Position numbers and translations under genes: made by a program
Part shown: positions 24,401 to 39,685 of the stretch, piece after piece
Position numbering within the stretch: position 1 is the first letter of the stretch
Layout: every line of letters starts with the position of its first letter
Notes under the pieces: generated by a model
Database searches by the model: none
What the model was told of the DNA's origin: nothing
Seen by the model: the letters and a program-made list of their open reading frames with translations, nothing else
Source of the DNA: a virus
UHGV virus genome: UHGV-2079066
Reading direction: 5' to 3' (one strand)
Length of the DNA: 40,071 bases

Positions 24401-24411
24401 ACTATCACCAT

Positions 24412-24434: not shown

Positions 24435-24452
24435 TTATCATAGTGATCGATA

Positions 24453-24480: not shown

Positions 24481-24523
24481 ATATACACAAATACGGCAAC
24501 ATTGCAAACATCATGACGCTAAA

Positions 24524-25354
24524 TTACGCGATATTTATCACATCTTCACTTTTAGTCACCCGATTCAGTTGAGAGCTTGAATAACTCTCCTCCTGGAAAC
24601 ATTTGGTCACCAGGCTTTCATAGAATGGTTTCCAGCTATAACGCCACGTTCGGTCAGGCAGACTCGGCAACTCAGAAAAAACACCTCGATAGGCAACCGA
24701 TGATTTTGGCCTGCTGTATCCCCGCCCTTCGCAGCGCTTACATTCTTTGTAAACTGGTACGCCCTGCAGTTCTGTCGCTTTACGGTCAACCGTCTTGCCA
24801 GTTCCGCCACACTGGCATCGCTTACTTAACTTTCCGGTACCATGGCATCGCGAACATAAACTTTGCTCGGAGTCAGTTACTTCTCGCTTTACCTCAAAGT
24901 CAGATGGTGACTGTCTCAGGTCTTTTGCCCATTGTGGCAATCGCATTGTGTAATGGCTTTTAGTCACGGTTTTAGTGGTTGTAAGCAACCCTTTACCACT
25001 ACATTTTGGGCATGCCACACAATCAGCTGCTGATGAGGAATAATCGTTATAGGCAAACCGGGCAAGGATACGCATGCAGAGGGGAAACTTTTTCCCTGAT
25101 GCTTTGCGAATGGCCATGGGCGCATGCTCTTTCGCGTACTCAGTTAGCCAGGTTATTGACGCCTCTCTGTCCTGGCTGCTGATACCAGCTTTACCTAAAA
25201 ACATTGCCAGCCCGATCCCCGCATCGGCCTGAGTCATCCCCAATGCAGCCATTACATCAGTAACCGTCAGTTGTTCACTGGCTGTCGCTCTACTGGTATC
25301 TGATATGTGCATGCCTTTAGGCGCAAAAAACTTTAAAACATTGTCCAGATTCAT
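24524..25354 (-). CDS. late antiterminator Q-like protein with four CxxCxGxG zinc-finger repeats
   Basis: seen: ATG 25354 with GGAG SD; CPKCSGKG, CSRCHGTGK, CQCGGTGK, CKRCEGRG; located just upstream of the late promoter and lysis genes. Confidence 0.55.
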   Translation of the reverse strand: MNLDNVLKFFAPKGMHISDTSRATASEQLTVTDVMAALGMTQADAGIGLAMFLGKAGISSQDREASITWLTEYAKEHAPMAIRKASGKKFPLCMRILARFAYNDYSSSAADCVACPKCSGKGLLTTTKTVTKSHYTMRLPQWAKDLRQSPSDFEVKREVTDSEQSLCSRCHGTGKLSKRCQCGGTGKTVDRKATELQGVPVYKECKRCEGRGYSRPKSSVAYRGVFSELPSLPDRTWRYSWKPFYESLVTKCFQEESYSSSQLNRVTKSEDVINIA

Positions 25355-25370
25355 ACGGTCTCCATACTTC

Positions 25371-26399
25371 TTAAGCTTTCGCAATTACGCCGATCGCCAG
25401 CGCCCGATCCATAAAACGCAGTAGCAGCTCAAGCTGCGTACCATGCTTCTGCTCGAATGCTGGTACATCGGCGTGTAACTCGTCGTGGCACTCTCTGCAC
25501 AGAGGGATCACGAAGAGGTCATGGGCTTTTGTTGCTGTACCACCCATACCGTGCCCTACGATATGGTGCGGATCATCTGCTGGCCGTCGGCAACACTCAC
25601 AGGGTTGTGTTTTAACCCAGCGGGTGTACGTCTCATTTATCCAGCGGCGACGTTTTGGCCTGAGCATAAAAGACTCTGGCGACTCCGGATCAACAGAGAG
25701 CGTGAGGATCTTCTTCGCCTTCTCCTGCACAAGTCTGGTTGCTGACGAGGAAGGCACTATGTCGCTTTCCCTCATGACAGAACGGATCTTCTCATCCGGA
25801 AGGCGCAACCCTTTGTGCGCAACGCTTTCCGGAATAACATCAGCCAGGTCGTTTCTGACCATCCACCAGCACAGTTCAGGAAGCGTCAGGATATGCGACT
25901 CGGGAAAACCAGAATCACGCCGAATGACTTCCAGAATCCAGGATACCAGGTTTCCGGCCGCTATACCTGCAAGCTGTTCGGTATGCTGCCCCGACAAAGT
26001 GTGATCGCAATGCCAGCACAGGCGAATACTTCCTGGTGGGTGCCGCATTGTTGTGAAGTTCTTGTCGTGCCACGTTGAATGTGGCCACTGGCATTCAAAC
26101 CGATTACTCAACCATTGCTCAAGGGAAGGAAGCCCACCGGCACGCTGAATAACCCTCTCATTCTCGAAGACCTGACGCATTACCGGATCATCAGCTAGCG
26201 GCTGAATGGCTGCCGGAACAGCCCCGGTACTGAATGACGCCATTTCTTCTGGTTCAGGCTCGAGCAGAACGCGACCACGCATGAAGAGGTGCATCAGTTC
26301 CGTACCGGGACGGAACAGCACAATCCCCATACGATGGGCGATCTCGGGGGTAAGCAGAGCTCTCACGCGACCTGCCCCCTGGCAATGTGTTCTGCCCAC
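25371..26399 (-). CDS. DUF968-like protein with C-terminal HNH-like Cys/His motif
   Basis: seen: ...CECCRRPADDPHHIVGHGMGG...CRECHDELH; 342-codon ORF. Start is uncertain (overlaps upstream gene). Confidence 0.55.
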   Translation of the reverse strand: MGRTHCQGAGRVRALLTPEIAHRMGIVLFRPGTELMHLFMRGRVLLEPEPEEMASFSTGAVPAAIQPLADDPVMRQVFENERVIQRAGGLPSLEQWLSNRFECQWPHSTWHDKNFTTMRHPPGSIRLCWHCDHTLSGQHTEQLAGIAAGNLVSWILEVIRRDSGFPESHILTLPELCWWMVRNDLADVIPESVAHKGLRLPDEKIRSVMRESDIVPSSSATRLVQEKAKKILTLSVDPESPESFMLRPKRRRWINETYTRWVKTQPCECCRRPADDPHHIVGHGMGGTATKAHDLFVIPLCRECHDELHADVPAFEQKHGTQLELLLRFMDRALAIGVIAKA

Positions 26400-27046
26400 A
26401 GTCCACCAATCCAGCGCACGCCTTTCGCCGTGAAACGTGCCTGGCTGAATGCATGATTTGAGGTTACGGATGTGCCGGTTTTCATTTCAAAACGGCCCGC
26501 ATCAATATGCTGATGCCGTGGGGTCATCGTTCCGCCAAGGCGATACATGATGTCGTTCTCAAGGAGGAATAACCGCAGATCTGGCTCTTTGGCCTTAAGC
26601 AGTTTTGCCACCTGGCGGAATGACATTGACCCACTGGCTGTACAGTACCGATCAACAAACGCTACCTTCGGCGCAGCGGCAGCCAGTTCGTTAGTCAACT
26701 GTTGTTTTTGTTCTGCAAGGTCAGCTGCAAGACGTAGGGCTTCAGAGAATGATTGAGGAATCGTCTGCTGCTGTGCCTGCTCAAGCTCCTGCCAGCGATC
26801 AACCAGACGCGCGGTAAACTCCGGCGACAGCTGCGCGACAACGATATAACTGTCCCGCTTCCCTATCAGATAAACCGATACCGACTGATTGAGGTGATTT
26901 TTAACTTCCCCCATTGGGGGGAGTTCAATAACACCGCGCTCTGCCAGGCGTTCAATGGACCGTTTAACATGGTCATGTCGTGATTCCACCAGCTCAGCAA
27001 TATCGCTGCTGGACATGGTTAATGCTGTTGTTGCTAATTGGCTCAT
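26363..27046 (-). CDS. phage antirepressor (Rha-like N-terminal, KilA-C-like C-terminal)
   Basis: seen: ATG 27046 with GGAG SD; SSSDIAELVESRHDHVKRSIERL is Rha-like; C-terminal ...VAFVDRYCTASGSMSFRQVAKLL... is KilAC-like. Confidence 0.65.
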   Translation of the reverse strand: MSQLATTALTMSSSDIAELVESRHDHVKRSIERLAERGVIELPPMGEVKNHLNQSVSVYLIGKRDSYIVVAQLSPEFTARLVDRWQELEQAQQQTIPQSFSEALRLAADLAEQKQQLTNELAAAAPKVAFVDRYCTASGSMSFRQVAKLLKAKEPDLRLFLLENDIMYRLGGTMTPRHQHIDAGRFEMKTGTSVTSNHAFSQARFTAKGVRWIGGLWAEHIARGQVA

Positions 27047-27059
27047 ACTTTTCTCCATA

Positions 27060-27446
27060 TCAGGCGGCTGCACCCGCCGGTTCATATCTGCTGATCGTTA
27101 TCTCTACCCGACCTTTCGGCACTACGGGTCCCCATTCCACCAGCATGCGCTTAATCTGGCTGTCGTCTTCCCAGACACCCGCATGCGTCAGCGCGTCAAA
27201 CAGGGCTTTGTTGTAATTATCGATATCCCGGCGGCGCGCATCTGGCGGGTACAGAGTGATTTCTACCGCAGCCAGTTCAGTCGATGGCTTCGGGAGACGT
27301 CGTAATTGCTCAATGATCGCCACGCAGGCAGCGCTCTGGTATTTACGGCCATCAGCGCTAATGAGGTGACGACCGGCCAGCGGCCCCTTGTTAGGGGCGC
27401 GCCAGTAAGTGTTCACGCTCGGAGGAAAAGGCAGGATCAGTTTCAC
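27060..27446 (-). CDS. rusA: Holliday-junction resolvase RusA
   Basis: seen: MKLILPFPPSVNTYWR...RRRDIDNYNKALFDALTHAGVWEDDSQI matches recalled RusA motifs. Confidence 0.85.
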   Translation of the reverse strand: MKLILPFPPSVNTYWRAPNKGPLAGRHLISADGRKYQSAACVAIIEQLRRLPKPSTELAAVEITLYPPDARRRDIDNYNKALFDALTHAGVWEDDSQIKRMLVEWGPVVPKGRVEITISRYEPAGAAA

Positions 27447-28762
27447 GCGGCCTCTCCCCGCATATTGCGAACAAGTTCAGAAGCGGCAGTAATGATTTCG
27501 CTGGTGGCCGTTCGTTCCAGCCAGAGTTGATTGATGTTGGCTTTCAGCTTGTTCTGCTGTGATTCATCCAACATGTCAGCGCCATCTACCTGGTTGAACA
27601 CAATCCCAACCTCCAGTGGCCAGATACGGGACTCGGGAAGCGGATCCGCTACTGGTTTAGCTTTCTCACGGATGTGCATGCGGATCTGGCGAATATTGGA
27701 CCATCTGGAAACATCCAGGCTTCCCATGGCTGCAATGAAATCAGTGCTGTTCATGCCATATTCACCGGATGCTTCAAGGGCAACAGTGCGAATACGTTCC
27801 GACATATCCAGGCGCACTGCAGCGTCATCGAATTCAATCGACAACAACCACTCATCCACACCGAACAAAATACTCTCACGAATAAGCAGCTTCGCTTTGT
27901 CGATCGTTAATGGTGATACCTGAGTGAATTCCGGTGCTTCAACAGAATCCGCCGCCCAGGTATGCCCAAACTTCGATTCACTGAATGTGTATTCTTCTTT
28001 ATCGCCAAACGCAGCTCTAACGCATGCCCACGCCTCGACGCCGCTGACATCAAAAATATCTTTCTGAGTGAGTGGCAACTCAGCTTCTGGCTTATCAGCT
28101 GCAGGAGGTGTGGCAGTTGCAGGTTGAGACTTGCTGGCAGCAAATTGCGCCAAAGTCATAAACGCCCGCCCTTTTGCCTCCAGTTCTGTGCGGTTGATAT
28201 AGCTGAACCGCTCACCACGCCACGACTTATCGAATACAGCTATGGCACCGGCAAAAAACGCGCTGGTGGGTTTCTGTTTTTCGTCAGCAGGTACAAACCA
28301 CACAGGCAGATCGAACCCAATACGACCACGAATGAATACAATGTGATCGGCATCTTCTGGCCACCACGTTTCACTCGGCGCGGCTTTTATCAGGAATACA
28401 TAGCGACCGCCCTTCTCGCGCTGGGCTGCTGCGTAGTTCATGATATGCGTCATGCCGGTGATCGCCTGCTTCTCGTGGTACTGCGAACGGCTATACGGAG
28501 GGTTGCCATAACCAGCGCCGCCCAGTTCTGCCAGACGTTCAGACCAGTGCTGTGTCAGCGCGTTATCTTCGGCGGTGTACCATGCTGGGCACTTCGCGTT
28601 GTCGTCGTCAGCAAACAAGTCCAGAACTAATGGACCAAATAGCGCGTTGATCCCCCAAAAAAGCAGATCCGGTGTCCGCCACTGATCGCCAACTTCTTTC
28701 AATTCGTGAGCTGGTTTGCTACGCAGTGCCGCCAGCACCTGGCAATATTTATTGGTCATCAT
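27443..28762 (-). CDS. phage-type DNA N6-adenine methyltransferase (Dam) fused to ~225-aa uncharacterised C-terminal domain
   Basis: seen: DQWRTPDLLF...LDLFAD...GYGNPPYS in the first ~215 aa; the remainder has no motif I recognise. Start overlaps stop of replication gene (ATGA). Confidence 0.75.
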   Translation of the reverse strand: MMTNKYCQVLAALRSKPAHELKEVGDQWRTPDLLFWGINALFGPLVLDLFADDDNAKCPAWYTAEDNALTQHWSERLAELGGAGYGNPPYSRSQYHEKQAITGMTHIMNYAAAQREKGGRYVFLIKAAPSETWWPEDADHIVFIRGRIGFDLPVWFVPADEKQKPTSAFFAGAIAVFDKSWRGERFSYINRTELEAKGRAFMTLAQFAASKSQPATATPPAADKPEAELPLTQKDIFDVSGVEAWACVRAAFGDKEEYTFSESKFGHTWAADSVEAPEFTQVSPLTIDKAKLLIRESILFGVDEWLLSIEFDDAAVRLDMSERIRTVALEASGEYGMNSTDFIAAMGSLDVSRWSNIRQIRMHIREKAKPVADPLPESRIWPLEVGIVFNQVDGADMLDESQQNKLKANINQLWLERTATSEIITAASELVRNMRGEAA

Positions 28763-29625
28763 GAACGGAACCCCGAATTTTCTGGCAGTGAGTAATCAAC
28801 ACTCTGGAAGTTTGCGCGGCTGGCTGAGTTAGTCTCCCATTTGCCGTTAACGCGTTCAGGCCGGCCAGCACTGGACCATTTGGTCGCGCTTTGCAGGTAA
28901 CCAGGGAAGTTTTTTGGAATGAACAGAGTTGCCGGGCGGAGGTATTGCGCCTGCTCGCTATCACGCCAATCGGCATTTTTGTAATCCACTACCAGGCACA
29001 GGTCATCAACCGTGAATTGTTCCCGAAGACGGGCGCGAATATTCTCCAGCGACGTACTGCATACCTGGTAGCGTGAGCCAGTTGTCTGGTTCAGGTAAGA
29101 CAAGACCTGTCTGGCCTGATCAGTAATCACAACCTCAGGGTCGGGTTGCGCCGCAACCGGACAAGAGGGTTTTGAAGTTACTTGTGGATCTTGTTTTGAT
29201 TTTACTGACGGATCCCCGCCAGATTCTGACGGGTCAAAACCATCGTTTTTGCCAGATTTCGACGGGTCAGTTTTTGAGGCGTCAAATTTTGATGCGTCAG
29301 ATTTTGACGTGTCAGAATCTGACAGTTGAGAAAATGCGGCAGTCTGAAGTTTCGCCACATTCAGCCGATACACGTTCGAAGCATTACGGTTACCATTACG
29401 GCGCTGTGTACGTGTGAGCCAGCCATCTTTTTCAAGCTTTGCGATTGCCGTTCTGATAGTGCTCGGGCCTGCGCCAAGCTGGCGAGCAATAGTTTCAATT
29501 GACGGCCAGCACACACCTTCATCGCTGCTGAAGTCAGCAAGGCGAGCCATGATCGCAACACTGGACAACTTCATGCCCGACGCTGCGCAACCATCCCATA
29601 CGTAGCCGGTTAATTTAGTGCTCAT
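28759..29625 (-). CDS. replication initiation protein (N-terminal HTH, repeat linker, conserved phage C-terminal domain)
   Basis: seen: N-terminal ...WPSIETIARQLGAGPSTIRTAIAKLEKDGWL...; Ser/Asp/Lys repeat linker encoded by the iteron DNA; position after cro/CII as for lambda O. Confidence 0.7.
   Translation of the reverse strand: MSTKLTGYVWDGCAASGMKLSSVAIMARLADFSSDEGVCWPSIETIARQLGAGPSTIRTAIAKLEKDGWLTRTQRRNGNRNASNVYRLNVAKLQTAAFSQLSDSDTSKSDASKFDASKTDPSKSGKNDGFDPSESGGDPSVKSKQDPQVTSKPSCPVAAQPDPEVVITDQARQVLSYLNQTTGSRYQVCSTSLENIRARLREQFTVDDLCLVVDYKNADWRDSEQAQYLRPATLFIPKNFPGYLQSATKWSSAGRPERVNGKWETNSASRANFQSVDYSLPENSGFRS
29201..29328. repeat. iteron array (candidate origin of replication) inside the replication gene
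   Basis: seen: 6-7 copies of tGAcG-N-GTCA-like units, e.g. ctgacgggtca, tcgacgggtca, ttttgaggcgtcaaat / ttttgatgcgtcagat / ttttgacgtgtcagaa at 16-nt spacing. Confidence 0.55.
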
Positions 29626-29634
29626 GATCGTCCG

Positions 29635-29961
29635 TTATCTCCCTGAACTTTTGCCTGAAATGCTCAAGTGGGCTGAAGCATTCGTGTGGATAGCCATCTC
29701 GCAGGTAGATAACGCGCTGTGTTTCTGGCTCCCAGCGGATAACACGGACTGGCACTCCGCGGTGATCTTTGAACCTTCGGTTAAGTTCGCGCACAGGCGT
29801 TTTGCCCTCCGATAGTAGACCCCCACAATTACGGCAGCCTGGCTGTGGTTACATGACACCCAGCGATTTGATACTTTGCATTCATACCGAAACAGCGGAA
29901 GACCCGGCACCGGGATCATTCGTAGTTGCGGTAAGTGAGGATTTACGATTAAATTGCTCAT
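29635..29961 (-). CDS. hypothetical protein (low-confidence ORF between CII-like gene and replication gene)
   Basis: seen: 108 codons from ATG 29961; Cys-rich, odd composition. An antisense 65-codon ORF (29618-29815) is an alternative; neither is convincing. Confidence 0.3.
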   Translation of the reverse strand: MSNLIVNPHLPQLRMIPVPGLPLFRYECKVSNRWVSCNHSQAAVIVGVYYRRAKRLCANLTEGSKITAECQSVLSAGSQKHSALSTCEMAIHTNASAHLSISGKSSGR

Positions 29962-29966
29962 GCGGA

Positions 29967-30518
29967 TTATTTCTCCATACTCGAAGAGTTGTTCGCCAAG
30001 GCGCCCGGAGCTGCACACTCGCGGGCGTCACTCTTTTCAGCGACACAAAAAACTCGGTAAAGCAGCGTGACGTGCTCCTGAAACTTCGCGATCACCTGGT
30101 AGCTGTTCTCCTCTATCTGAGCACGCTCATCTGCGTCAATCACCCCATCAGCAGTAGCCTTTCGCACAAAGGTAGAATGACGACCAATCCATTCAATGGA
30201 CTCCATCAGGCGCTGGTTAATATCGGCGTTATCCAAATCATCAACATCTGCCAGCGGTACGAATACGCCTTGAGAATGGCGCGCAACGGCATCAGCAATA
30301 TGAGTCGAACCACCAGCACGCTGTAGAACCATCGCCCAACCCAACGGGAATATCTGATCGCCCTCAGTGCGGAGACGGTTGAACAACCCGTTCTCTGAAG
30401 TTCCTAACCATTCCGCGGCCTCGGCATACCCACCAGGAAGGTCGGTAATGGTTTTTTTTATTGCGACCACCAGCCAGGCTGGCTGACGTTCGACTTTCCA
30501 ACTAGGTTCATTACCCAC
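29967..30518 (-). CDS. CII-like lysogeny-establishment regulator (large ~180-aa type)
   Basis: seen: GTG start with AAGGGGG SD 23 nt after the cro stop; ...YAEAAEWLGTSENGLFNRLR... is HTH-like. Family name is recalled, not verified. Confidence 0.45.
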   Translation of the reverse strand: MGNEPSWKVERQPAWLVVAIKKTITDLPGGYAEAAEWLGTSENGLFNRLRTEGDQIFPLGWAMVLQRAGGSTHIADAVARHSQGVFVPLADVDDLDNADINQRLMESIEWIGRHSTFVRKATADGVIDADERAQIEENSYQVIAKFQEHVTLLYRVFCVAEKSDARECAAPGALANNSSSMEK

Positions 30519-30745: not shown

Positions 30746-30845
30746 GGTTTGAATCCTCTTTAGTTAGCATTCTTACATCGTATATGGACAGCATACTTAC
30801 GTCAATAAAATGTAAGATTGCTAACGTACATTCCGAGGAGATTTT
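30746..30845. promoter_or_regulatory. OR region: divergent pR/pRM promoters with dyad operators GT(A/T)AG-N4-CT(A/T)AC
   Basis: seen: gttagcattcttac (30763-30776) and gtaagattgctaac (30812-30825); TTGACG and TATA-like hexamers on the cro strand; GAGGAG SD for cI. Confidence 0.6.
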
Positions 30846-31478
30846 ATGGATACCGTTGGCAGCAGACTGAGATTTAGAAGAAAGCAGAAAAAACTTACCC
30901 AGCGCGATGTGGCTGAGTGGGCAGGAGTAAGCGCGTCTGCTGTGACCCAGTGGGAAAGTGATTTAACAAAACTTTCTGGTGAGAACTTGATATTGGTGTG
31001 TAAATGCCTTCAGTGCTCGCCAGAATGGTTGGTTTTTGGTTCAGGCGATATCGAAAATGGCATTAACATCAACTTGATGTCTGCCAGAGAGGTCCCTCTC
31101 ATATCATGGGTGCAAGCTGGTAATTGGACGGAAGTAATTGGAAATCCTAATAATGAACAAGTGAAAACCACTCGAAAACTTTCTGATTCCGCCTTTGCTT
31201 TGAGGGTTAAGGGAGATTCAATGACTTCTAGCCAGGAGTTGAGTATTCCTGAAGGTTCTATTGTTATTGTTGAACCAGAGTTCGGCTTCGTGGATGAGGC
31301 AAACGGTAAAATTGTCGTTGCTCAAACGGTATCTGGTGGTGAGGCAACTTTAAAAAAGCTGGCGATAGACCCACCGTTTTCGTACCTAATCCCACTGAAT
31401 CCTGCGTTTAAACCCATTGAGGTGAATCAAGAGACCAATCTAATTGGGATAGTTAAACAAATTATCATTGACCTTTAG
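30846..31478 (+). CDS. cI: CI-like repressor (HTH_XRE plus LexA-type S24 autopeptidase domain)
   Basis: seen: N-terminal LTQRDVAEWAGVSASAVTQWE; Ala-Gly in VQAGNW; Ser in KGDSM and downstream Lys. Confidence 0.9.
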   Translation: MDTVGSRLRFRRKQKKLTQRDVAEWAGVSASAVTQWESDLTKLSGENLILVCKCLQCSPEWLVFGSGDIENGININLMSAREVPLISWVQAGNWTEVIGNPNNEQVKTTRKLSDSAFALRVKGDSMTSSQELSIPEGSIVIVEPEFGFVDEANGKIVVAQTVSGGEATLKKLAIDPPFSYLIPLNPAFKPIEVNQETNLIGIVKQIIIDL

Positions 31479-31495
31479 CCCCTCTGGTTCCTACA

Positions 31496-31522
31496 AGCCC
31501 GCTGATCATGCGGGCTTTTTTA
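31496..31522 (+). terminator. rho-independent terminator after cI
   Basis: seen: agcccgc-tgatcat-gcgggct followed by T6. Confidence 0.7.
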
Positions 31523-31538
31523 TGCCTGTGAAAATATA

Positions 31539-31589
31539 GTAAGCAAACTTACAAAATAGACTTGACTGTAAATGTAAGATGTCTAATAT
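31539..31589 (+). promoter_or_regulatory. pL-like promoter with OL operator: -35 TTGACT (31562-31567), -10 TAATAT (31584-31589)
   Basis: seen: 16-nt spacer; perfect 14-bp palindrome GTAAGcaaaCTTAC (31539-31552) matches the OR operator motif; further gtaag half-sites in the spacer. Confidence 0.5.
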
Positions 31590-31625
31590 TAAATCCATCA
31601 GCAACGAACATTGTGGGCATCAGGA

Positions 31626-31829
31626 ATGAAGATAGAGTTGGTTGTTAACGGGAAAATTACTGCTGAGTGCAGTGATGAATCGGAGTTTCTGGCATTCAAT
31701 GCTGCCGTTTTTAGCGCTCTATCGGACATGCAACTTACCCTTCATTCCGAACGAAGGGCTCGTTCAAAATCTAAAATGGCGGCCTTCAATGAGAAGTTTT
31801 TTAAAACGGATCCCACGGGTCGCAATTAA
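31626..31829 (+). CDS. hypothetical small protein, first ORF after pL (not N-like)
   Basis: seen: 67 aa from ATG 31626; weak SD; no arginine-rich N-terminus. Confidence 0.4.
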   Translation: MKIELVVNGKITAECSDESEFLAFNAAVFSALSDMQLTLHSERRARSKSKMAAFNEKFFKTDPTGRN

Positions 31830-32034
31830 GAGAATCAAGAAGCTTAATGGTTTGATAGGTGATGGCTTCCTGTTTAACAGTGTTTTCTGGGCTTGACAGT
31901 TGATCGCGCAATAATTGTATTTGGTTATGCAGGTCATCTGATAGTGGGCCCTCATTAGCACATATTGCAGCTGAAATGGTCTTAATCGCAGCTTCAATAG
32001 CAGTGAGTCTTAACTCAATAATATCGTTATTCAT
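31801..32034 (-). CDS. hypothetical small acidic helical protein, antisense to the early-left operon
   Basis: seen: 77 aa MNNDIIELRLTAIEAAIKTISAAICANEGPLSDDLHNQIQLLRDQL...; 3' end overlaps 31626-31829 by 29 nt; weak SD. Confidence 0.35.
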   Translation of the reverse strand: MNNDIIELRLTAIEAAIKTISAAICANEGPLSDDLHNQIQLLRDQLSSPENTVKQEAITYQTIKLLDSLNCDPWDPF

Positions 32035-32645
32035 AGGTTTATCTTCTTGGCTGTGTGAGAACTCCAAGAATACCACTGAGCCTGATGTGGTGAAAAGACA
32101 GGCAGCAGTTGCAGTACGGCATATGGCACATGTGCCGCAGCAGTCCGGGGATTCCTTGCAAGACATATCCAGATCCAGCGGGTAGCCGGAATATGCAAGC
32201 CAGGCGTGTACGGCAGCCAGAGACGTTTCACCAGCGTGGCGATCAGGTGTGACACCTCGGAAGAGACGAGTCCATAACCAAAAGAGCGCTGGCATGCAAA
32301 AAACATCTCGCAGCCGTTGCAGTACCAAAAGCCAGGATGGGGCGGCAGAACGCGGTAGTGCTCTTTTTGATGTGGTAAACCCGTAGTAGCTGTACCAGAT
32401 GCTGTGTGTAGTCTTGGCGGTACCAGGGTCTTCAACCTTATGCAAGGGGGACGAAGATAATGTTCTACCTCGGTACCGCCCTTTTTACACAACAGACAAG
32501 GGCATCACCGGGCGACGGGCTCATAACCCAATCCACCCGGGCAAAAAGAAAGCGGTCTCTCAAGCCGCCAACCAATGCAGGTGCCCTTCTCTGTTGTGTA
32601 TGGAGAAAGTTCGGCGGTGGCAGCCGCCTTAACGAGGGTAAAACC

Positions 32646-33017
32646 ATGAGTAATGACCGCATGACCGTAGTGCCAGATTTTCTTGGCGAACTGGATGCCG
32701 GCGTGTTCATGAACAAAATCGCGGCAGCACTTAATACCACCGCGCTTGGCGTTCTGAACAACGGCAACAAAGGCAAAGTAGTCCTCACCTTTGATTTTGA
32801 GCGCATGGGTAATTCCGTTGAAGAGAAGCGCGTGAAGATCAAGCACAAGCTGAACTACAGCACCCCGACACCTCGTGGTAAAGCCTCCGAAGAGGACACA
32901 ACCGAAACCCCTATGTGGGTCAACAAAGGCGGGAAGCTCACCATACTGCAGGAAGATCAGGGGCAACTATTCGGGATCACCGGCGCGGTGGATGGAAAGC
33001 TTAAAGCGGCTCAGTGA
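32646..33017 (+). CDS. hypothetical early protein (124 aa)
   Basis: seen: ATG 32646 with GAGGG SD; the track ORF has a 62-codon upstream extension of poor composition. Confidence 0.6.
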   Translation: MSNDRMTVVPDFLGELDAGVFMNKIAAALNTTALGVLNNGNKGKVVLTFDFERMGNSVEEKRVKIKHKLNYSTPTPRGKASEEDTTETPMWVNKGGKLTILQEDQGQLFGITGAVDGKLKAAQ

Positions 33018-33073
33018 TCCGCAGCAACAAACTCACTGATACCACTTCGAACATCAGCAATTAAGGAATTTTT

Positions 33074-33901
33074 ATGTCTCAGTTAGACAGCGGCACCTTC
33101 AAGCAGGTCAAAGACCTGGTTCTTTCCGGTTATCACCTGGATGATATTCAGGACCTGGCTTGCCCGACCGCATTACTGCCAGAGGGTACTGGCGTTGAAA
33201 GCCTCGAGCGTTTTTCTCTGGAGCGTTTCCGCTTTCGTGGCGCAATGACCACAACCAGTATTGACGACTTCGCCCGTTATTCTAAAGGTTATGCCAGCGC
33301 CAGCGAGCCAGCTCGTTGCTTCATTGACGCTGACAACATGACCGCCCGTTCAGTGTTCAACATCGGCACCCTGGATAATCCAGGTCACGCCGATAACGTT
33401 GCTTCAATCACCCTGAAGAAAACCGCCCCGTTCCGAGCGTTACTGCAGATCGATGGTCAACGCCTGAAGCAAAAGCAAATCGCGGAATGGCTGGAAGACT
33501 GGAGCGATTACCTGCTGGCGTTTGATGCTGATGGCAATACGATGCAGATTTCACAGGCGGCTCAGGCTGTGCGTCGTATCACTATTCAGCAAGCAACACA
33601 GCAGGACCATGAAACTGGTGATTTCGCTGGTAAAAAATCTCTGATGCAAAGCGTTGAAGCAAGCAGCAAAGACGTAATGCCTGTGGCGTTCGAGTTCAAA
33701 TGTGTGCCGTATGAAGGTCTGGGTGAACGCCGCTTTAGCTTGCGTAACAGCCTGCTGACCAGCGATGAACCCTGCTTTGTTCTGCGCATCGTCCAACTTG
33801 AAGCCCAGGAAGAAGAGATCGCCAACGAATTCCGCGATTTGCTGATCAGCAAGTTCGAAGGTGAATCAGTGGAAACTTTCATCGGTAACTTTAAAGCCTA
33901 A
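33074..33901 (+). CDS. DUF2303 (YfdQ-like) protein
   Basis: seen: 275 aa, AAGGA SD. The family assignment is recalled from memory of CPS-53-type early regions and is unverified. Confidence 0.6.
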   Translation: MSQLDSGTFKQVKDLVLSGYHLDDIQDLACPTALLPEGTGVESLERFSLERFRFRGAMTTTSIDDFARYSKGYASASEPARCFIDADNMTARSVFNIGTLDNPGHADNVASITLKKTAPFRALLQIDGQRLKQKQIAEWLEDWSDYLLAFDADGNTMQISQAAQAVRRITIQQATQQDHETGDFAGKKSLMQSVEASSKDVMPVAFEFKCVPYEGLGERRFSLRNSLLTSDEPCFVLRIVQLEAQEEEIANEFRDLLISKFEGESVETFIGNFKA

Positions 33902-33913
33902 TTGCTCTGCATT

Positions 33914-33937
33914 AAATCCCCGGCGCCGCGGGGATTT
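33914..33937 (+). terminator. GC-rich hairpin (attenuator-like) after DUF2303 gene
   Basis: seen: aaatccccggcgccgcggggattt then TATT; weak U-tract. Confidence 0.4.
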
Positions 33938-34029
33938 ATTGAAGCGTAATTCCATTAATTATCGCCAACCGGCGAGGGATTCGTACAACCAAAATCTGCG
34001 CGGTGCAGCGCGCCAATATGGGGAAAACC

Positions 34030-34569
34030 ATGAGCTACATTCAGACATTATCCGGCAAACATTTTAATTACCTCGATATCCAACAGGACGATATCGTGAT
34101 CGAGGATATTGCTACCGCTTTGTCTCATATCTGCCGTTTTGCAGGGCATCTTCCTGAGTTTTATAGCGTCGGCCAGCATAGCGTTTTAACCAGCCACCTC
34201 GTTCCGCAGGAGTTTGCATTAGAAGCACTGCTTCATGATGCCGCCGAAGCCTACCTGCAGGATATCCCCTCGCCTCTTAAGCGCCTGCTACCGGATTACC
34301 AGGCGATCGAAGCTCGCGTAGACGCTGCTATTCGCCAGAAATTTGGCCTACCGACGGAACAACACCCAACTGTGAAATATGCCGACCTGGTGATGCTTGC
34401 CAGCGAACGCCGAGATTTTGAGATTGACGAAGGTTCCATTTGGCCATGCCTCGAGGGAGTTGTCCCAACGGATTTATTCATTATCAACCCAGTTCGTCCT
34501 GGCCAGTCATACGGCATGTTCATCAATCGCTTTAACGAGTTGATGGAGCAGCGCCAATGCGCCGCATGA
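34030..34569 (+). CDS. HD-domain phosphohydrolase (YfdR-like)
   Basis: seen: ...ALSHICRFAGH...LLHDAAEAY...; ATG 34030 with GGGGA SD. Track start 34003 is a GTG. Confidence 0.75.
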   Translation: MSYIQTLSGKHFNYLDIQQDDIVIEDIATALSHICRFAGHLPEFYSVGQHSVLTSHLVPQEFALEALLHDAAEAYLQDIPSPLKRLLPDYQAIEARVDAAIRQKFGLPTEQHPTVKYADLVMLASERRDFEIDEGSIWPCLEGVVPTDLFIINPVRPGQSYGMFINRFNELMEQRQCAA

Positions 34570-34733
34570 AGGTAAAAGAACTCGTAGCGGAGGCGTTTGC
34601 CTCCGTTGCTGAATTGCCACCAAAACATGCGCCGCTTATGCGCGAAGTCGCCACCAGACTGGACGCTACGTTCGCAGCATTAAAAGAGTCTCTGGTGCAA
34701 CTGGAACAGGAACGTAAAGGTAAAACGCCATGA
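34557..34733 (+). CDS. small ORF (58 aa) translationally coupled on both sides
   Basis: seen: ATG 34557 overlaps the HD gene end; stop overlaps next ATG (ATGA at 34730-34733); GGAG at -9. Below the track cutoff. Confidence 0.35.
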   Translation: MRRMKVKELVAEAFASVAELPPKHAPLMREVATRLDATFAALKESLVQLEQERKGKTP

Positions 34734-34984
34734 CCGTATTTGAATATCTCCAGGCTCATCCGAATACCACCAGCGGTGAAATCGCCAAAGGTATGAACAA
34801 AAAGACACCCGCGGTCGCCGGAGCATTATCTCAGCTCTATGGCACCGGCCGGATCGTGAAGTCTGGTGTTCGCAAGGGCATTCCAACATACCGCATTAAC
34901 GATATGCCGTTTGGTTGCAGTAACAGCCTAACCATGATGTTTAACCAGCTATTGAATAGGGCCAGACAGGGAGCAGCCCAATGA
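34730..34984 (+). CDS. small DNA-binding-like protein (winged-helix type)
   Basis: seen: 84 aa; ...TSGEIAKGMNKKTPAVAGALSQLYGTGRIVK... is HTH-like. Confidence 0.55.
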   Translation: MTVFEYLQAHPNTTSGEIAKGMNKKTPAVAGALSQLYGTGRIVKSGVRKGIPTYRINDMPFGCSNSLTMMFNQLLNRARQGAAQ

Positions 34985-35457
34985 CAGCACTCAACAAACA
35001 GGCGCTGCGTGAAGCGGCGCAGGAAGAAATAATGCTCCGCTCTGTCAGTGATACCTCTGACGCCTGGCAGGATGAAGCAAGCCCGGAAGCTGTGCTGGCG
35101 CTGCTGGATGAGTTGGAAACCGCAGAGAAGCGAAACGCTGAATTACAAAGTGAGAATGCATACATCCGCAACCGGAACAAAGAACTGGACCTGTTAATTG
35201 GGAAAAACATTCTGGTCATGCAGGCTGCAATTATCGAATGGCAGGCAACTGGCGACGCTAAGAATGGGCTGGCATGGATTTATAACACGCTGTTTGGACC
35301 TGGCGAATTGCCTGACGAATCTGAGAAAGATGCTCAGGCCTACTTTGACCGCAAATATGCACCGATTGACGAAGAGCTTATGGCGCTTCACAAGTGGTTT
35401 TGGGAACAAAGTGAGGCCGAACGTGCCGCCGCTGGCATTGGCGTAAAGGGGGAATGA
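34981..35457 (+). CDS. Ead/Ea22-like protein
   Basis: seen: MTALNKQALREAAQEE..., coiled-coil acidic; ATGA overlap with upstream gene; GGGAG SD. Confidence 0.65.
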   Translation: MTALNKQALREAAQEEIMLRSVSDTSDAWQDEASPEAVLALLDELETAEKRNAELQSENAYIRNRNKELDLLIGKNILVMQAAIIEWQATGDAKNGLAWIYNTLFGPGELPDESEKDAQAYFDRKYAPIDEELMALHKWFWEQSEAERAAAGIGVKGE

Positions 35458-35458
35458 G

Positions 35459-36163
35459 ATGGATAAATTTACGAAAGAGCAACAGGTGCAAGCAGTTTAC
35501 GATTTAAAGGTTGGTTACACCCTGGGGCATGCTGATATTGCAATGCTGAAATCAATGGCCCGCCAACTACTCGCCAGCATGGAGCAGGAGCCTATGGCTT
35601 GGGTGACTATGCAGAAGGAATTTTGCGATGATGAACGCACGGCAATAACCAATCGGGTTGACGCAGATCGCTACAGCATTAGTTGCTATGATCTGACGCC
35701 ACTCTACGCAGCACCACAGTTACCGCATCCAGCGGTACCGGATGAAATTGACGTTAATGACCCTGCACTCGACACGCATAGAAAATGGATGGCAGAGGGC
35801 TGGAATCGTTGCCGCGCCGCCATGCTTCAGGGTAGCCAACCTGTAAGTAAGCGCGAACAGGTTCGCCGTGAACACGCTGAATGGTCAGATAAGACTTTCG
35901 GCGATGTTGGTCCCGTTGGCCCGTTTAAACACCTGTCGAAAGAGGCGCTGGAAGCTGCCGCAGAACCTGACGACCTCAGCGAGTGGGCTGACATGCAGTT
36001 CCTGTTATGGGACGCCCAGCGGCGCGCCGGTATCAGTGACGGTGAAATCACAGCTGCGATGGAAGAAAAGCTGAAAGTGAACATGGCGCGCCAGTGGCCT
36101 GAGCCGAAAGACGGGGAACCTCGATTGCATATCAAAGAACAGTCAGAGCAGGAGAAAAAATAA
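35459..36163 (+). CDS. protein with C-terminal dATP/dGTP pyrophosphohydrolase-like (DUF550, MazG-like) domain
   Basis: seen: ...EHAEWSDKTFGDVGPVGPFKHLSKEALEAAAEPDDLSEWADMQFLLWDAQRRAGISDGEI.... Confidence 0.7.
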   Translation: MDKFTKEQQVQAVYDLKVGYTLGHADIAMLKSMARQLLASMEQEPMAWVTMQKEFCDDERTAITNRVDADRYSISCYDLTPLYAAPQLPHPAVPDEIDVNDPALDTHRKWMAEGWNRCRAAMLQGSQPVSKREQVRREHAEWSDKTFGDVGPVGPFKHLSKEALEAAAEPDDLSEWADMQFLLWDAQRRAGISDGEITAAMEEKLKVNMARQWPEPKDGEPRLHIKEQSEQEKK

Positions 36164-36165
36164 GA

Positions 36166-36420
36166 ATGTTTAGCCTGATTCGGCGCGGTCAAATCTACAC
36201 GGACAGTAGCAACTGGCCCGTAATTATCCATAGCTGTAGCGATCACTCGGTCCGAATCAAACGCAATGATGGCGGGCTGAGAACGATTAGCATCAAACGC
36301 TTTAACGAAGATTTTGAACGAGTGGAACATGATGAGTATCGCAAAATATGTGCCGAAATAGAGCAGGAAACAAACCTGAAAAACCTACGTGCGATGCGTC
36401 GCGGCAAGATTACTGAATAG
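36166..36420 (+). CDS. hypothetical small protein
   Basis: seen: 84 aa, AGGAG SD, tightly packed in operon. Confidence 0.6.
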   Translation: MFSLIRRGQIYTDSSNWPVIIHSCSDHSVRIKRNDGGLRTISIKRFNEDFERVEHDEYRKICAEIEQETNLKNLRAMRRGKITE

Positions 36421-36441
36421 CCAAACAGGAGAATATTTAAC

Positions 36442-37005
36442 GTGAACAACTTAATGATCGACCTTGAAACTATGGGCAAAAAGTCGAATGCCCCTATTGT
36501 CTCCATTGGTGCCGTGTTCTTCGATCCGCAAAGCGGTGAACTGGGTCAGGAGTTTTACACCGCCGTTAACCTTGAAAGCGCTATGGAGCAGGGAGCGGTG
36601 CCAGATGGTGACACTATTCTGTGGTGGTTAAGACAAAGCTCAGAAGCACGATCAGCAATCTGTGTTGATGATGCGATGCCGATATCGTCTGCCCTATCTG
36701 AACTGAGCCATTTCATTAACCGACATTCTGATAACCCGAAATATTTAAAAGTTTGGGGCAATGGAGCTACTTTCGACAACGTTATATTGCGCGGCGCATA
36801 TGAGCGCGCCGGCCAGGTTTGCCCGTGGCAATTTTGGAACGATCACGACGTCAGAACCATCGTCACATTAGGCAGAGTTGTGGGTTTCGATCCTAAGCGA
36901 GATATGCCATTCGATGGGGTTGCACATAACGCACTGGCCGATGCCCGCCACCAGGCCAAATACGTTTCAGCAATTTGGCAACGTCTACTGCCCCACCAGC
37001 AATAA
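36442..37005 (+). CDS. DnaQ-like 3'-5' exonuclease (DEDDh type)
   Basis: seen: MIDLETMG (Asp-x-Glu), ...VWGNGATFDN..., ...HNALADA...; GTG start with AGGAG SD. Confidence 0.75.
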   Translation: MNNLMIDLETMGKKSNAPIVSIGAVFFDPQSGELGQEFYTAVNLESAMEQGAVPDGDTILWWLRQSSEARSAICVDDAMPISSALSELSHFINRHSDNPKYLKVWGNGATFDNVILRGAYERAGQVCPWQFWNDHDVRTIVTLGRVVGFDPKRDMPFDGVAHNALADARHQAKYVSAIWQRLLPHQQ

Positions 37006-37055
37006 TTTATAAATATGAAAGCCCGGGTGCAGCCGGGCTGTATGGAGAATCTGTC

Positions 37056-37265
37056 ATGGCAAAACTAATGAAGGCGAGTCAGTGGGGTAAACGCGAATTT
37101 ACCAAAGACTCGATCCCGGATAATCGAACCATTAAACGTTGGGTTGAAAACGGACTTCTCACAGGCAAAATCGTAGACGGATCTGTTTGGGTCTGCGAGT
37201 CTGAAAAATGGGGGGTCGACTCAATGGTTAATCATACGGTTCGCCAGCTTATCAGTGAGGGTTAA
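37056..37265 (+). CDS. xis: excisionase-like protein
   Basis: seen: 69 aa from ATG 37056 (GGAGA SD); stop 2 nt before int ATG. inference from position and size; motif recall is weak. Confidence 0.55.
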   Translation: MAKLMKASQWGKREFTKDSIPDNRTIKRWVENGLLTGKIVDGSVWVCESEKWGVDSMVNHTVRQLISEG

Positions 37266-37267
37266 CC

Positions 37268-38446
37268 ATGGCAGCCAGGCCAAGAAAAAGAGAATACCGC
37301 CATCTACCCGAATATCTAATATTCGATAAAGATCGCGGCGTTTATAAATTTACGCTTATAACTGGGAAAAAAAAGAATATCGGTAAAGACAGGGCTGTAG
37401 CGATCGCTATAGCCCGTGAATACAACCTCAGAATGAGGCCTACAAATGTACCATCAGTAGAAATACTTGTCCGTGAATCTGGCGGTGTAACGGGGGAGGC
37501 AAAACCATTTGCTGAACACGTAGATCATATTATGGAGCGGGCGATTGAGAATGAGCGCCCTTCACAGAATACACTCGACGATTGGAACAACGATGCTCTG
37601 AGGGTAAAAGAATTCTTCATCAGCATACCAGCTTGCGATATTGAGCTGGAGCATGTGAACGCCTATATAAACCACTACCATGCCGAAGCATCAGCAAACG
37701 TACAAAACAGGAAAGTCAGCTTTCTTAAAAAATTATTCTCCTATGCGGTCGATGAATCGCTAATGTTCGATAACCCGGCAACCCGTAAAAAAATGCGTAG
37801 GATAGAAGAGAAGAAACGCCAGCGCCTCTCACTTGATAACTTTAAAGCTATCAGGCGCGCAGCTGAACCATGGTTACGGACCGCGATGGATTTGGCATTG
37901 CAGACAACACACGCACGATTGGAGGTTTCACGGATCCGTTACTCCATAAGAGAGCCTAAAGACGGCATCTGCGGGTGTCTATGGTTAGCACAACCAGAAA
38001 ACGGTATTTATGGGACGCTATACATCCACAGGCAGAAAGTGCAAAAAAAAGAGGCATCTCACGTTGCAATCCCGATTGGGGAAGAGTTGAAGCGGATAAT
38101 TGACGATAGTCGAGATAATGTTGCCAGTCCGTTTGTCGTTCACAGAATCCCAGAACGGCAGGTTAAACGCAGCAAAGAGGTTTCACACCCTACTCAAGTT
38201 GCACCGGATTATTTAAGTCGGTCGTTTTCAGCTACGCGTGACATGCTAGGTTTATGCGACCATCTACCGATGGACGAAAGACCAACCTTTCACGAAATCA
38301 GAGCGCTGGCTGCGCATCTTTTCGATCAGCAGGGTATCGATCCACAAGGGCGAATGGCACATAGCGATGCGAAATCAACAAAGATCTACACGCAAAACCA
38401 TATCGACTGGGTAGTAGTTCCTCATGGCGAGATTCAGACAGCATAA
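37268..38446 (+). CDS. int: tyrosine integrase
   Basis: seen: 392 aa; C-terminal HEIRALAAHLF...KIYTQNH carries the His-x-x-Arg and catalytic Tyr of the R-H-R-Y family; adjacent to att. Confidence 0.9.
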   Translation: MAARPRKREYRHLPEYLIFDKDRGVYKFTLITGKKKNIGKDRAVAIAIAREYNLRMRPTNVPSVEILVRESGGVTGEAKPFAEHVDHIMERAIENERPSQNTLDDWNNDALRVKEFFISIPACDIELEHVNAYINHYHAEASANVQNRKVSFLKKLFSYAVDESLMFDNPATRKKMRRIEEKKRQRLSLDNFKAIRRAAEPWLRTAMDLALQTTHARLEVSRIRYSIREPKDGICGCLWLAQPENGIYGTLYIHRQKVQKKEASHVAIPIGEELKRIIDDSRDNVASPFVVHRIPERQVKRSKEVSHPTQVAPDYLSRSFSATRDMLGLCDHLPMDERPTFHEIRALAAHLFDQQGIDPQGRMAHSDAKSTKIYTQNHIDWVVVPHGEIQTA

Positions 38447-38753: not shown

Positions 38754-38792
38754 AAACCCTGATGGTTGGCGCCGTCAGGGTTTTTACTTTTT
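38754..38792. terminator. hairpin terminator (stronger on plus strand) just past the ImmA-like stop
   Basis: seen: aaaccctgatggttggcgccgtcagggttt followed by ttactttttt on plus strand. Confidence 0.45.
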
Positions 38793-39311
38793 TAACAACT
38801 GCTTTTGATAATCAGCTGCATGTGCGGATACCCCGCATGCTTCAGCAATTTCTTCTACCGACATGTTCCGCAACAATGCTGAATGGCTATATGGCACGAG
38901 CAATTCCCCACTAAAACACTTTGCTTGCCACTCGCTACTTTCAAAAGCTCTAATTTCAACTCCTGGAGCAGCGCGAGCAAAAGCAATATTCTTATGCATC
39001 AGAAGATGCCCTATTTCATGGGCAACCGTCATACGGTCACGGCCATTTCCAGCATGGGCACCTTCATATACATCTTCGCGTAGAATAATTAGTGATTCCT
39101 GAGGCATAGTTAGCCCATGAGTGCCACCCATCTCCTTTTCAGAAGCTGTTTCAAACGAAAAGTTGGGTAAGATCTGCGGTAACGCGAACTCAAGCATTTC
39201 AATCACAGGAAAATACAAATCATGTATCTTCAGCATCGAGCGTAAATTATTAGTTAAACCGCGAACCGCGCTGCGGCTTAAAGGTGGCACTCGATAATCT
39301 TGTCCGCTCAA
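38784..39311 (-). CDS. ImmA/IrrE-family zinc metallopeptidase
   Basis: seen: HEXXH as AHEIGHLLMH; 175 aa; directly downstream of an XRE HTH gene. Confidence 0.8.
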   Translation of the reverse strand: MSGQDYRVPPLSRSAVRGLTNNLRSMLKIHDLYFPVIEMLEFALPQILPNFSFETASEKEMGGTHGLTMPQESLIILREDVYEGAHAGNGRDRMTVAHEIGHLLMHKNIAFARAAPGVEIRAFESSEWQAKCFSGELLVPYSHSALLRNMSVEEIAEACGVSAHAADYQKQLLKK

Positions 39312-39325
39312 ACAGAGCCTCCTAC

Positions 39326-39685
39326 TTATTGTTTTTTAGTTAACAATTCACGTAGACGTTTAAACTCATCATCACTTAGCTCATCAAAGTTGCGTGCAAA
39401 TGCCATCGCTACTTCACGAGCATTTTGATTCTTACCCGAAAGATTAATCTCAACAGATTGTTGAGAATCACGAGCTGCTTTCGCTAACTCATCCCCAGCA
39501 TGAACGCCTTCATTAGTGAAATAATTAATGATGCTTTTCAATACAGGGTCAGTAACAGCCCGCTTTCCTGTTTCAATTGCTGAGAGGTAAGACGAGGTCA
39601 CGCCCATAGCATCAGCCATGCTTTTCAGCGTGACACCGACGTCTATTCGTAATTTCCTAACTTTCTTACCAAACGGCGTTAACAT
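39326..39685 (-). CDS. XRE-family HTH transcriptional regulator
   Basis: seen: KKVRKLRIDVGVTLKSMADAMGVTSSYLSAIETGKR; GAGAGG SD. Confidence 0.8.
   Translation of the reverse strand: MLTPFGKKVRKLRIDVGVTLKSMADAMGVTSSYLSAIETGKRAVTDPVLKSIINYFTNEGVHAGDELAKAARDSQQSVEINLSGKNQNAREVAMAFARNFDELSDDEFKRLRELLTKKQ

Follow-up and report, generated by a model that had tools for sequence, protein, structure and literature searches.

Background

Positions 32646-37005 of UHGV virus genome UHGV-2079066 hold nine tightly packed plus-strand genes, located between a predicted early-left promoter and operator (pL/oL) and the excisionase and integrase genes (xis-int). The window, here and below, is the whole stretch of 40,071 nucleotides (nt) that was analyzed. 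Two described regions serve as references for this interval: the early-left region of lambda, whose exo-xis genes are accessory modulators of the choice between lysis and lysogeny (PMC10834534), and the yfd genes of the E. coli K-12 prophage CPS-53. K-12 YfdR binds domain I of DnaA via Phe46, in competition with DiaA and DnaB, and multicopy yfdQRS or yfdQRT blocks initiation at oriC, an effect that the authors consider a possible artefact of overexpression (PMC4776307). In the same paper, Noguchi and Katayama describe a K-12 ΔyfdQ strain as sensitive to methyl methanesulfonate (MMS) and hydrogen peroxide (H2O2) and, citing Zimmerman 2008, give YfdR a nucleotide affinity far below that of YfbR and an elusive function.

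Two enzyme families encoded in the interval have characterized members. S-2L MazZ and the dATP/dGTP pyrophosphohydrolase of SH-Ab 15497 both belong to the DUF550 family, and DUF550/MazZ enzymes convert dGTP and dATP to monophosphates (PMC12884076, PMC8342488). T4 DexA, a 3'-5' exonuclease, scavenges host DNA and serves intron homing, according to a 2025 paper (PMC12153337).

The initial annotation of the interval presented it as an accessory cluster enriched in enzymes acting on nucleotides and DNA ends, and speculated that its HD-domain and MazG-like proteins may manipulate nucleotide pools or counter nucleotide-based host defences. We consider it probable that the interval is a pL-driven early-left accessory operon, made up as a patchwork of four independently exchanging modules, and not one system. 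In lambda, it would correspond to the recombination genes and the exo-xis region. The emphasis on nucleotide enzymes passed over the YfdP-YfdQ pair, which is the conserved core here.

Gene content and modular exchange

Family searches used Pfam, PHROGs, NCBIfam and PADLOC profiles together with PDB sequence matches. The nine genes are as follows (lengths in amino acids, aa).

32646-33017, plus strand: YfdP-like protein, 123 aa (PF27127 'YfdP'; phrog_204)
33074-33901, plus strand: YfdQ/DUF2303 protein, 275 aa (Pfam PF10065, E 5e-66, 223 bits against 26.6)
34030-34569, plus strand: YfdR orthologue, HD-domain phosphohydrolase, 179 aa (phrog_318 'dNMP phosphatase', E 3e-98)
34557-34733, plus strand: 58-aa open reading frame (ORF) (phrog_12248, E 1e-34)
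34730-34984, plus strand: putative winged-helix (MarR-like) protein, 84 aa (phrog_1687, E 5.5e-25)
34981-35457, plus strand: 158-aa protein with an Ead/Ea22-like N-terminus and a separate C-terminal domain (Pfam and PHROG)
35459-36163, plus strand: 234-aa protein with an N-terminal domain without assignment and a C-terminal DUF550/MazZ-type nucleoside triphosphate (NTP) pyrophosphohydrolase domain (136-230)
36166-36420, plus strand: DUF4222 protein, 84 aa (PF13973, E 4e-10; phrog_285, E 2e-30)
36442-37005, plus strand: Rv2179c-like/T4 DexA-like DEDDh 3'-5' exonuclease, 187 aa (Pfam, PDB)

All genes listed in the initial annotation are real and lie on the plus strand where it had placed them; two others, the YfdP-like gene (32646-33017) and the DUF4222 gene (36166-36420), had gone unnamed. 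Its family assignments were right according to the Pfam and PHROG searches, with the winged helix recognized solely by PHROG and the Ea22 likeness confined to residues 5-65. Independent gene calls on public contigs confirm the gene lengths.

Our reading distinguishes four modules: (a) the yfdP-yfdQ gene pair; (b) yfdR with the coupled 58-aa ORF and the gene of the 84-aa winged helix-turn-helix (wHTH) protein; (c) a cassette consisting here of the Ead/Ea22-like, DUF550 NTP pyrophosphohydrolase and DUF4222 genes; and (d) the DexA-like 3'-5' exonuclease gene adjoining xis-int. Co-occurrence was counted in 80 IMG/VR loci with close YfdQ relatives and in 80 loci with close YfdR relatives; both samples consist of close relatives (83-100% identity), so that the counts are not phylogenetically independent. 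Among the 80 loci collected through YfdQ, YfdP is found in 79, YfdR in 76, the 58-aa ORF in 53, the exonuclease in 51, the wHTH protein in 38, DUF550 in 11, and the Ead-like and DUF4222 proteins in 3 each. The 58-aa ORF is present in 77 of the 80 loci collected through YfdR. Across both sets, DUF550 is limited to 11/80 and 16/80 loci and the Ead-like protein to 3-4/80, while the exonuclease is seen in 46-51 of 80, a lower bound because some loci are truncated.

The exchanges themselves can be observed directly. On four public contigs encoding an identical YfdQ protein (L190-L193), three unrelated gene sets occupy the segment between the wHTH and exonuclease genes, and only one of the three includes DUF550: the Ead-DUF550-DUF4222 block is swapped for unrelated genes although YfdQ does not change. 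This segment is a hypervariable cassette. In the E. coli Nissle prophage, the DUF550 gene is a truncated pseudogene. The left end of the region is exchanged as well. The slot 5' of the HD gene, in the 80 loci chosen through YfdR, holds YfdP and YfdQ in 58 cases, RdgC in 19 and nothing in 3, and the Nissle prophage carries a phage-encoded RdgC (L002, 4165-5082) in the exact yfdP+yfdQ slot, followed by the same HD gene. Furthermore, YfdR identity is bimodal, at about 70% or about 98% whatever the identity of YfdQ, and we therefore place a recombination joint in the yfdQ-yfdR spacer. A search of 5426 complete E. coli genomes found parts of the region in 671 of them, and in no genome did the matches cover at least 80% of it.

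The YfdP-YfdQ pair

The YfdQ protein of the window is 57% identical to K-12 YfdQ and belongs to a family that comprises at least 1394 clusters when grouped at 50% identity. Most of the 150 cluster representatives with the best scores consist of a single domain and measure 264-288 aa; those that are shorter match only in part. Relatives were found in 180 phage records, among them records of Vibrio, Xanthomonas, Halomonas and Pseudomonas phages, and the family is present in temperate and virulent phages alike. YfdP, whose gene lies 56 nt upstream in the window, adjoins YfdQ in Vibrio, Halomonas and Xanthomonas phages and in metagenomic loci. In four annotated distant phages, the gene directly 5' of yfdQ encodes a YfdP homologue (E 1e-18 to 1e-25), and an ORF of 119-152 aa abuts YfdQ upstream in each of 13 diverse loci. 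With the two proteins paired in 79/80 close and 13/13 distant loci, yfdP-yfdQ is an obligate gene pair, widespread and deeply conserved, and it forms the conserved core of the region. It is also the sole truly unexplained part of it.

The neighbourhood of the pair suggests DNA recombination and not nucleotides. Pfam searches of 78 ORFs flanking YfdPQ in the 13 diverse loci returned ERF (6), YqaJ (5), SSB (3), RNase_T (3), RecT (1) and Rad52 (1). In 8 of these 13 loci, the pair stands beside a bona fide single-strand annealing protein (SSAP; ERF, RecT or Rad52). That YfdPQ usually adjoins a real recombinase argues that it accompanies recombinases and does not replace them. An action on DNA or recombination intermediates would fit with the sensitivity of the ΔyfdQ strain to MMS and H2O2.

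Structural data add to this picture. PDB entry 9o7m, entitled 'YfdQ Protein', matches the window YfdQ (E 1.8e-40) and comprises 36 chains; the YfdQ in it shares 97% identity with that of Xanthomonas phage Usaquen, a virulent podovirus (L085, 4839-5663). Our literature search found no paper describing this entry, and we found no PDB entry for YfdP. The DUF2303 protein of the Burkholderia podovirus JC1, a phage that also has RecT and YqaJ, was detected in virions. This virion association, together with the closeness of 9o7m to a podovirus YfdQ, suggests that YfdQ may be packaged in the virion in some phages. Foldseek searches with structures predicted at moderate quality for YfdQ and at good quality for YfdP returned no informative relative in a PDB set that runs to 2026-04-08 and does not include 9o7m. 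Neither predicted structure resembles RdgC, Gam/Ku, Rad52, RecT or Erf, and YfdQ and RdgC have no direct similarity by BLASTP.

We tentatively suggest, as one possibility that may well prove wrong, that YfdP-YfdQ is a high-order assembly on DNA ends or recombination intermediates, an alternative to RdgC that accompanies SSAP, exonuclease and SSB modules, perhaps modulates host RecA or RecBCD, and is perhaps present in the virion of some podoviruses. The pair represents a large, uniform and structurally orphan phage family, associated with recombination genes and found in a slot equivalent to that of RdgC, for which a solved structure exists (9o7m).

Enzymes and small genes downstream of yfdQ

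The HD protein aligns with K-12 YfdR over its full length (64% identity over 178 aa, E 1e-90), and its start at 34030 and its length of 179 aa are confirmed by independent gene calls on public contigs. Pfam PF12917 (YfbR-like) gives 21.7 bits (E 1.8e-4) and does not reach its cut-off of 25.9, and the NCBIfam YfbR equivalog model gives 17.8 bits where 122 are required; judged by these scores, the protein is of the YfdR type and not a YfbR equivalog. It also matches PDB 2gz4 (Atu1052; E 3.6e-13). The metal-binding H...HD...D residues and the E/D of HDxxExxxxD are kept as QH, HDAAEAYLQD and YAD, motifs that align with K-12 YfdR, Atu1052 (2gz4) and YfbR. The RefSeq K-12 record names the YfdR product 5'-deoxynucleotidase, and K-12 YfdR is the only one for which dNMP phosphatase activity and binding to DnaA domain I are on record. 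A role like that of T5 Dmp was considered and dropped: T5 is not among the 40 records listed out of 298 phage records with YfdR-like proteins.

The 58-aa ORF overlaps yfdR by 13 nt and the 84-aa gene downstream by 4 nt, and is thus predicted to be translationally coupled to both; it has no similarity to K-12 YfdS. For the 84-aa putative winged-helix protein, there is no Pfam match, and the assignment comes solely from the PHROG MarR-family match. In the Ead-like protein, Ead_Ea22 (PF13935) covers only residues 5-65 (E 9.5e-7, 29.9 bits against 27; profile positions 4-98 of 139). Its C-terminus matches phrog_18739 (E 2.7e-60) and corresponds to the C-termini of the longer PHROG families 18739 and 250. 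Residues 46-145 (35116-35415) match the PADLOC 'DpdH' model PDLC02890 (E 6e-36), a model name that says nothing on function here.

The DUF550 domain is clear (PF04447, E 4.5e-44, 149.1 bits against 23, profile positions 2-96 of 97). The five acidic metal ligands of S-2L MazZ are E34, E35, E38, E50 and D53 (PMC8342488). In a weak pairwise alignment of the domain with MazZ (PDB 7ody, E 0.0075), the equivalents of E35, E38, E50 and D53 are kept and E34 aligns to Lys. The exonuclease spans its profile (PF16473, E 1.5e-75, 253 bits against 27, positions 1-177 of 177) and matches PDB 8kel/8ken (E 5e-11), which are structures of T4 DexA (PMC12153337). According to its sequence and the DexA alignment, the DEDDh residues D7, E9, D112, H162 and D167 are all present. 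Among the HD, DUF550 and exonuclease proteins, all alignable catalytic residues are therefore kept, bar one of the five DUF550 metal ligands.

Three of the nine genes encode enzymes acting on nucleotides or DNA. The proposed enrichment represents no statistical anomaly; nucleic-acid enzymes are the usual content of this lambdoid region.

Alternative explanations

Taken together, the three enzymes could form a drain on deoxynucleotides through the deoxynucleoside monophosphates (dNMPs): the exonuclease would turn DNA into dNMPs, DUF550 would convert dATP and dGTP to dAMP and dGMP, and YfdR would convert dNMPs to deoxynucleosides, thereby lowering host dNTP pools or destroying defence nucleotide signals. 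The conserved residues listed above argue for it, as do the published activities of the families and the co-transcription of the genes, inferred from gene packing and the terminator and promoter scans; an HD protein together with DUF550 also recalls the DatZ-MazZ pairing of Z-genome phages. The genes are not inherited together, however. Among 80 related loci, just 11-16 contain DUF550, which other genes replace in prophages with identical YfdQ and which is a pseudogene in Nissle; PurZ or any other Z-pathway gene is absent from the scanned window ORFs, and the nucleotide affinity of YfdR is low, as Noguchi and Katayama relate from Zimmerman 2008. We regard such a drain as unlikely. The initial annotation's proposal that the HD and MazG-like proteins act on nucleotides is partly supported, being reasonable at the level of the families: both have measured hydrolase activity, and the residues are largely kept. 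YfdR and DexA relatives have other published roles. It had also named an established unrelated role as a reason to abandon the idea, and such a role is partly on record: K-12 YfdR binds DnaA, and multicopy yfdQRST inhibits oriC initiation (PMC4776307). For the suggested countering of nucleotide-based defences, we found no supporting evidence. PADLOC returned no match for the HD, DUF550, YfdP and YfdQ proteins, which is a weak negative because PADLOC holds defence and not anti-defence families. None of these families is known to cleave cyclic-nucleotide signals.

Two further explanations involve the exonuclease. It may benefit the lysogen as an HREX-type defence that degrades incoming T-even DNA modified with 5-hydroxymethylcytosine (5hmC), the neighbouring cassette genes being further exclusion morons. 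Protection against T4 is reported for EcD, an E. coli DexA homologue that has A78 in place of the tetramer-forming D90, and homologues are commonest in Escherichia, Citrobacter and Klebsiella (PMC12153337). The window exonuclease is of the same short form, with Ala at its own position 78, a residue other than Asp at the D90 equivalent, and the Trp equivalent to W152 kept; the Ead-like C-terminal domain adds its match to the 'DpdH' model. W152 and D169 are the 5hmC recognition residues of DexA (PMC12153337), and the D169 equivalent here aligns to Val. Furthermore, the likeness to EcD follows the paper's description and not the EcD sequence, the evidence for protection is a single study with a plasmid-expressed gene (PMC12153337), the 'DpdH' name is uninformative, and the window gene lies within a repressor-controlled pL operon with no promoter of its own found in the promoter scan. 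We hold this explanation to be quite improbable. It has also to be asked whether YfdP-YfdQ and the 3'-5' exonuclease constitute a non-canonical recombination system of their own, replacing Red, RecET or Erf. The initial annotation saw no Red/RecT recombinase and no Gam, and Pfam and PHROG scans of the early-left and early-right ORFs agree; Pfam scans covering the early-right ORFs of at least 127 aa (23389-30518), those close to pL and the ten structural ORFs of greatest length detected no SSAP (Red-beta/RecT, Erf, Rad52/Sak), Gam or PurZ. YfdPQ resides in recombination neighbourhoods elsewhere, and the 36 YfdQ chains in 9o7m make a high-order assembly, as SSAPs form, possible. However, the pair stands beside a bona fide SSAP in 8/13 diverse loci and JC1 has RecT and YqaJ as well, the predicted structures contain no Rad52-, RecT- or Erf-like fold, and roughly one locus in three lacks the exonuclease. 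The nuclease that works with an SSAP is as a rule a 5'-3' exonuclease and not a DEDDh 3'-5' enzyme. A replacement system of this kind is very unlikely.

We thus return to a patchwork of four modules. After infection or induction, each product would modulate host DNA metabolism in its own way: YfdR would bind DnaA and weakly dephosphorylate dNMPs, the DUF550 protein would turn dGTP and dATP into monophosphates, the exonuclease would trim DNA 3' ends, and YfdP-YfdQ would act on DNA or recombination intermediates where sister prophages have RdgC. Several points weigh against this reading. Co-transcription and translational coupling make the products appear together, so that they may cooperate, and the activities of the three enzymes do meet at dNMPs. 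The YfdR-DnaA result was obtained by overexpression and, as its authors allow, may be an artefact; the initiation effect also needed YfdS or YfdT, and this phage has neither. The role given to YfdPQ is drawn only from gene neighbourhood and slot replacement, and the predicted structures of both proteins are unlike RdgC, Gam/Ku, Rad52 and RecT. Finally, the sampled loci are close relatives, although the swaps stand as direct observations even with locus counts that are not independent.

As originally flagged, the region is a case of routine lambdoid early-region mosaicism, and yfdQ-yfdR already have a literature. It nevertheless calls for caution: HD, MazG-like and exonuclease genes that lie together do not amount to one nucleotide-targeting or counter-defence system, and here they are independently shuffled cassettes.

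Operon layout and signals

The predicted transcription unit that contains the interval carries or adjoins the following features.

31495-31517: cI terminator (terminator scan)
31562-31589, plus strand: predicted pL, TTGACT-16-TAATAT (promoter scan)
33914-33937, plus strand: stable hairpin with a 9-bp stem, AAATCCCCG/CGGGGATTT, directly 3' of yfdQ (minimum free energy -18.1 kcal/mol, z -2.9)
33998-34011, plus strand: invariant 14-mer GCGCGGTGCAGCGC, 5' of the yfdR ribosome-binding site
37056-37265, plus strand: excisionase, 69 aa, also 69 aa on public contigs (weak PHROG excisionase match; directly before int)
37268-38446, plus strand: tyrosine integrase, 392 aa, at the end of the transcription unit (Pfam and PHROG integrase matches)
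38754-38783, plus strand: terminator with a 13-bp stem, after int

An operator-like 17-mer, AAATGTAAGATGTCTAA (31570-31586), overlaps the predicted pL and is repeated in the cI-cro intergenic region, in direct orientation at 30808-30824 and inverted at 30763-30783; oL/pL can therefore be placed about 1.06 kb 5' of yfdP. Intergenic gaps from yfdR to int range from -13 to +50 nt, and the terminator scan found no strong plus-strand terminator within 31600-38446. Since the gaps are tight and the only strong plus-strand terminator after pL follows int, it is plausible that 31590-38446 forms one pL-driven operon, as the initial annotation had assumed.

The leader between pL and yfdP (31590-32645) contains a 67-aa plus-strand ORF (31626-31829) without family match and a convergent minus-strand gene of 76 aa (31801-32031; phrog_28250, E 2e-38), which is called on public contigs too. 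About 600 nt without a family-matching ORF follow the 76-aa gene and contain a 19-nt inverted repeat (32486-32504/32582-32600) that is 95% complementary. E. coli relatives have a ClpX-type zinc-finger gene in place of this leader content.

Two elements lie in the yfdQ-yfdR spacer. The hairpin after yfdQ has a K-12 equivalent in the same place (L003, 10870-10891), and since the two share their position although their stems differ in sequence, a conserved attenuator or an element that stabilizes the RNA 3' end is a possibility. Rfam and tRNA scans revealed no known RNA element in the region, their sole match being the partial tRNA described below. The 14-mer GCGCGGTGCAGCGC is identical in the window, K-12, EC2001 and Nissle, including where rdgC stands for yfdPQ. 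It marks the left edge of the HD module, where it may be either a boundary between modules or a site of regulation.

The prophage as a whole

The window is a complete lambda-like siphovirus prophage. Its minus strand encodes tail fibre, gpJ, tape measure, tail tube, ClpP-capsid fusion, lambda-type portal and gpA terminase, and also holin, lysis genes, Q, DUF968/HNH, Rha/ANT, RusA, a Dam-domain protein, a Phg_2220_C replication protein and CII. On the plus strand, the repressor is followed by the interval, xis and int.

30846-31478, plus strand: S24/helix-turn-helix (HTH) repressor

Citrobacter freundii is the species named for the YfdQ homologues with 95-98% identity, and the host is therefore probably Citrobacter. 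The same gene string is found, identical, on a public metagenome contig (L190).

Several other features of the window deserve mention. A partial tRNA gene lacking its 5' end (1-70; Rfam 41 bits) lies at the prophage end opposite int and is probably the attachment-site tRNA. The largest ORF (13537-15828, minus strand, 763 aa) combines ClpP-protease and major-capsid matches, and an 802-aa distal tail protein (686-3094, minus strand) has a GDSL esterase domain. In a 439-aa protein (27443-28762, minus strand), the Dam methyltransferase domain is confined to residues 19-199, and Pfam matches nothing in the C-terminal ~240 residues. Past int and its terminator, the minus-strand stretch 38784-39685 encodes an ImmA/IrrE-type M78 peptidase (175 aa; PADLOC capP, E 6e-12) beside an XRE-family HTH protein (119 aa). 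The two are a CapP/CapH-like regulator pair, the cargo of which, if any, would sit past the window end.

Comparison with known systems

The left half of the interval is the known yfdPQR module of CPS-53, since YfdP, YfdQ and YfdR are all orthologous. CPS-53 (KpLE1) has the arrangement yfdP-yfdQ-yfdR-yfdS-yfdT-torI, with the same order of yfdP, yfdQ and yfdR 5' of the excisionase gene (identities 59, 57 and 64%) and a yfdQ-yfdR spacer of equal length (~128 nt) containing a hairpin and the invariant 14-mer. Unlike in CPS-53, the window genes after yfdR are unrelated, with no similarity to YfdS (DUF551) or YfdT; CPS-53 is a remnant, whereas the window prophage is intact with a full structural module.

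With the lambda pL early-left region, the interval shares its place (pL to xis-int), its orientation, its early timing and an Ead/Ea22-type N-terminal module. In contrast to lambda, it lacks Exo, Bet and Gam, and among the scanned ORFs no exo-xis family other than the Ead/Ea22 N-terminal module is found; lambda Ea22 is resembled by residues 5-65 alone, the C-terminal domain of the window protein being different.

Likeness to the MazZ/DatZ genes of Z-genome (2-aminoadenine) phages consists of a strong PF04447 match with an HD phosphohydrolase nearby. Unlike in those phages, PurZ and DpoZ are missing, the genome is an ordinary one, and the HD protein belongs to the YfdR type instead of being a DatZ. 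Further differences from MazZ are the fusion of the DUF550 domain to an unrelated N-terminal domain and the Lys aligned to metal ligand E34. As the scanned ORFs include no PurZ, this is not a Z-genome cluster.

Like the T4 DexA/Rv2179c-like exonucleases, the window enzyme matches PF16473 over its full length and has the DEDDh residues. It is a short form without DexA's extra loops, in which the D90-equivalent Asp is gone and the W152-equivalent Trp is there. As far as EcD can be compared by description, the window enzyme differs in that its D169 equivalent is not conserved in the alignment and its gene lies in a repressed early operon.

The closest counterpart of the YfdP-YfdQ pair by position is RdgC, a recombination-associated, RecA-modulating DNA-binding protein. 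In sister prophages (19/80 loci, and E. coli Nissle), it occupies the exact yfdP+yfdQ slot, 5' of the same HD gene and the same 14-mer.

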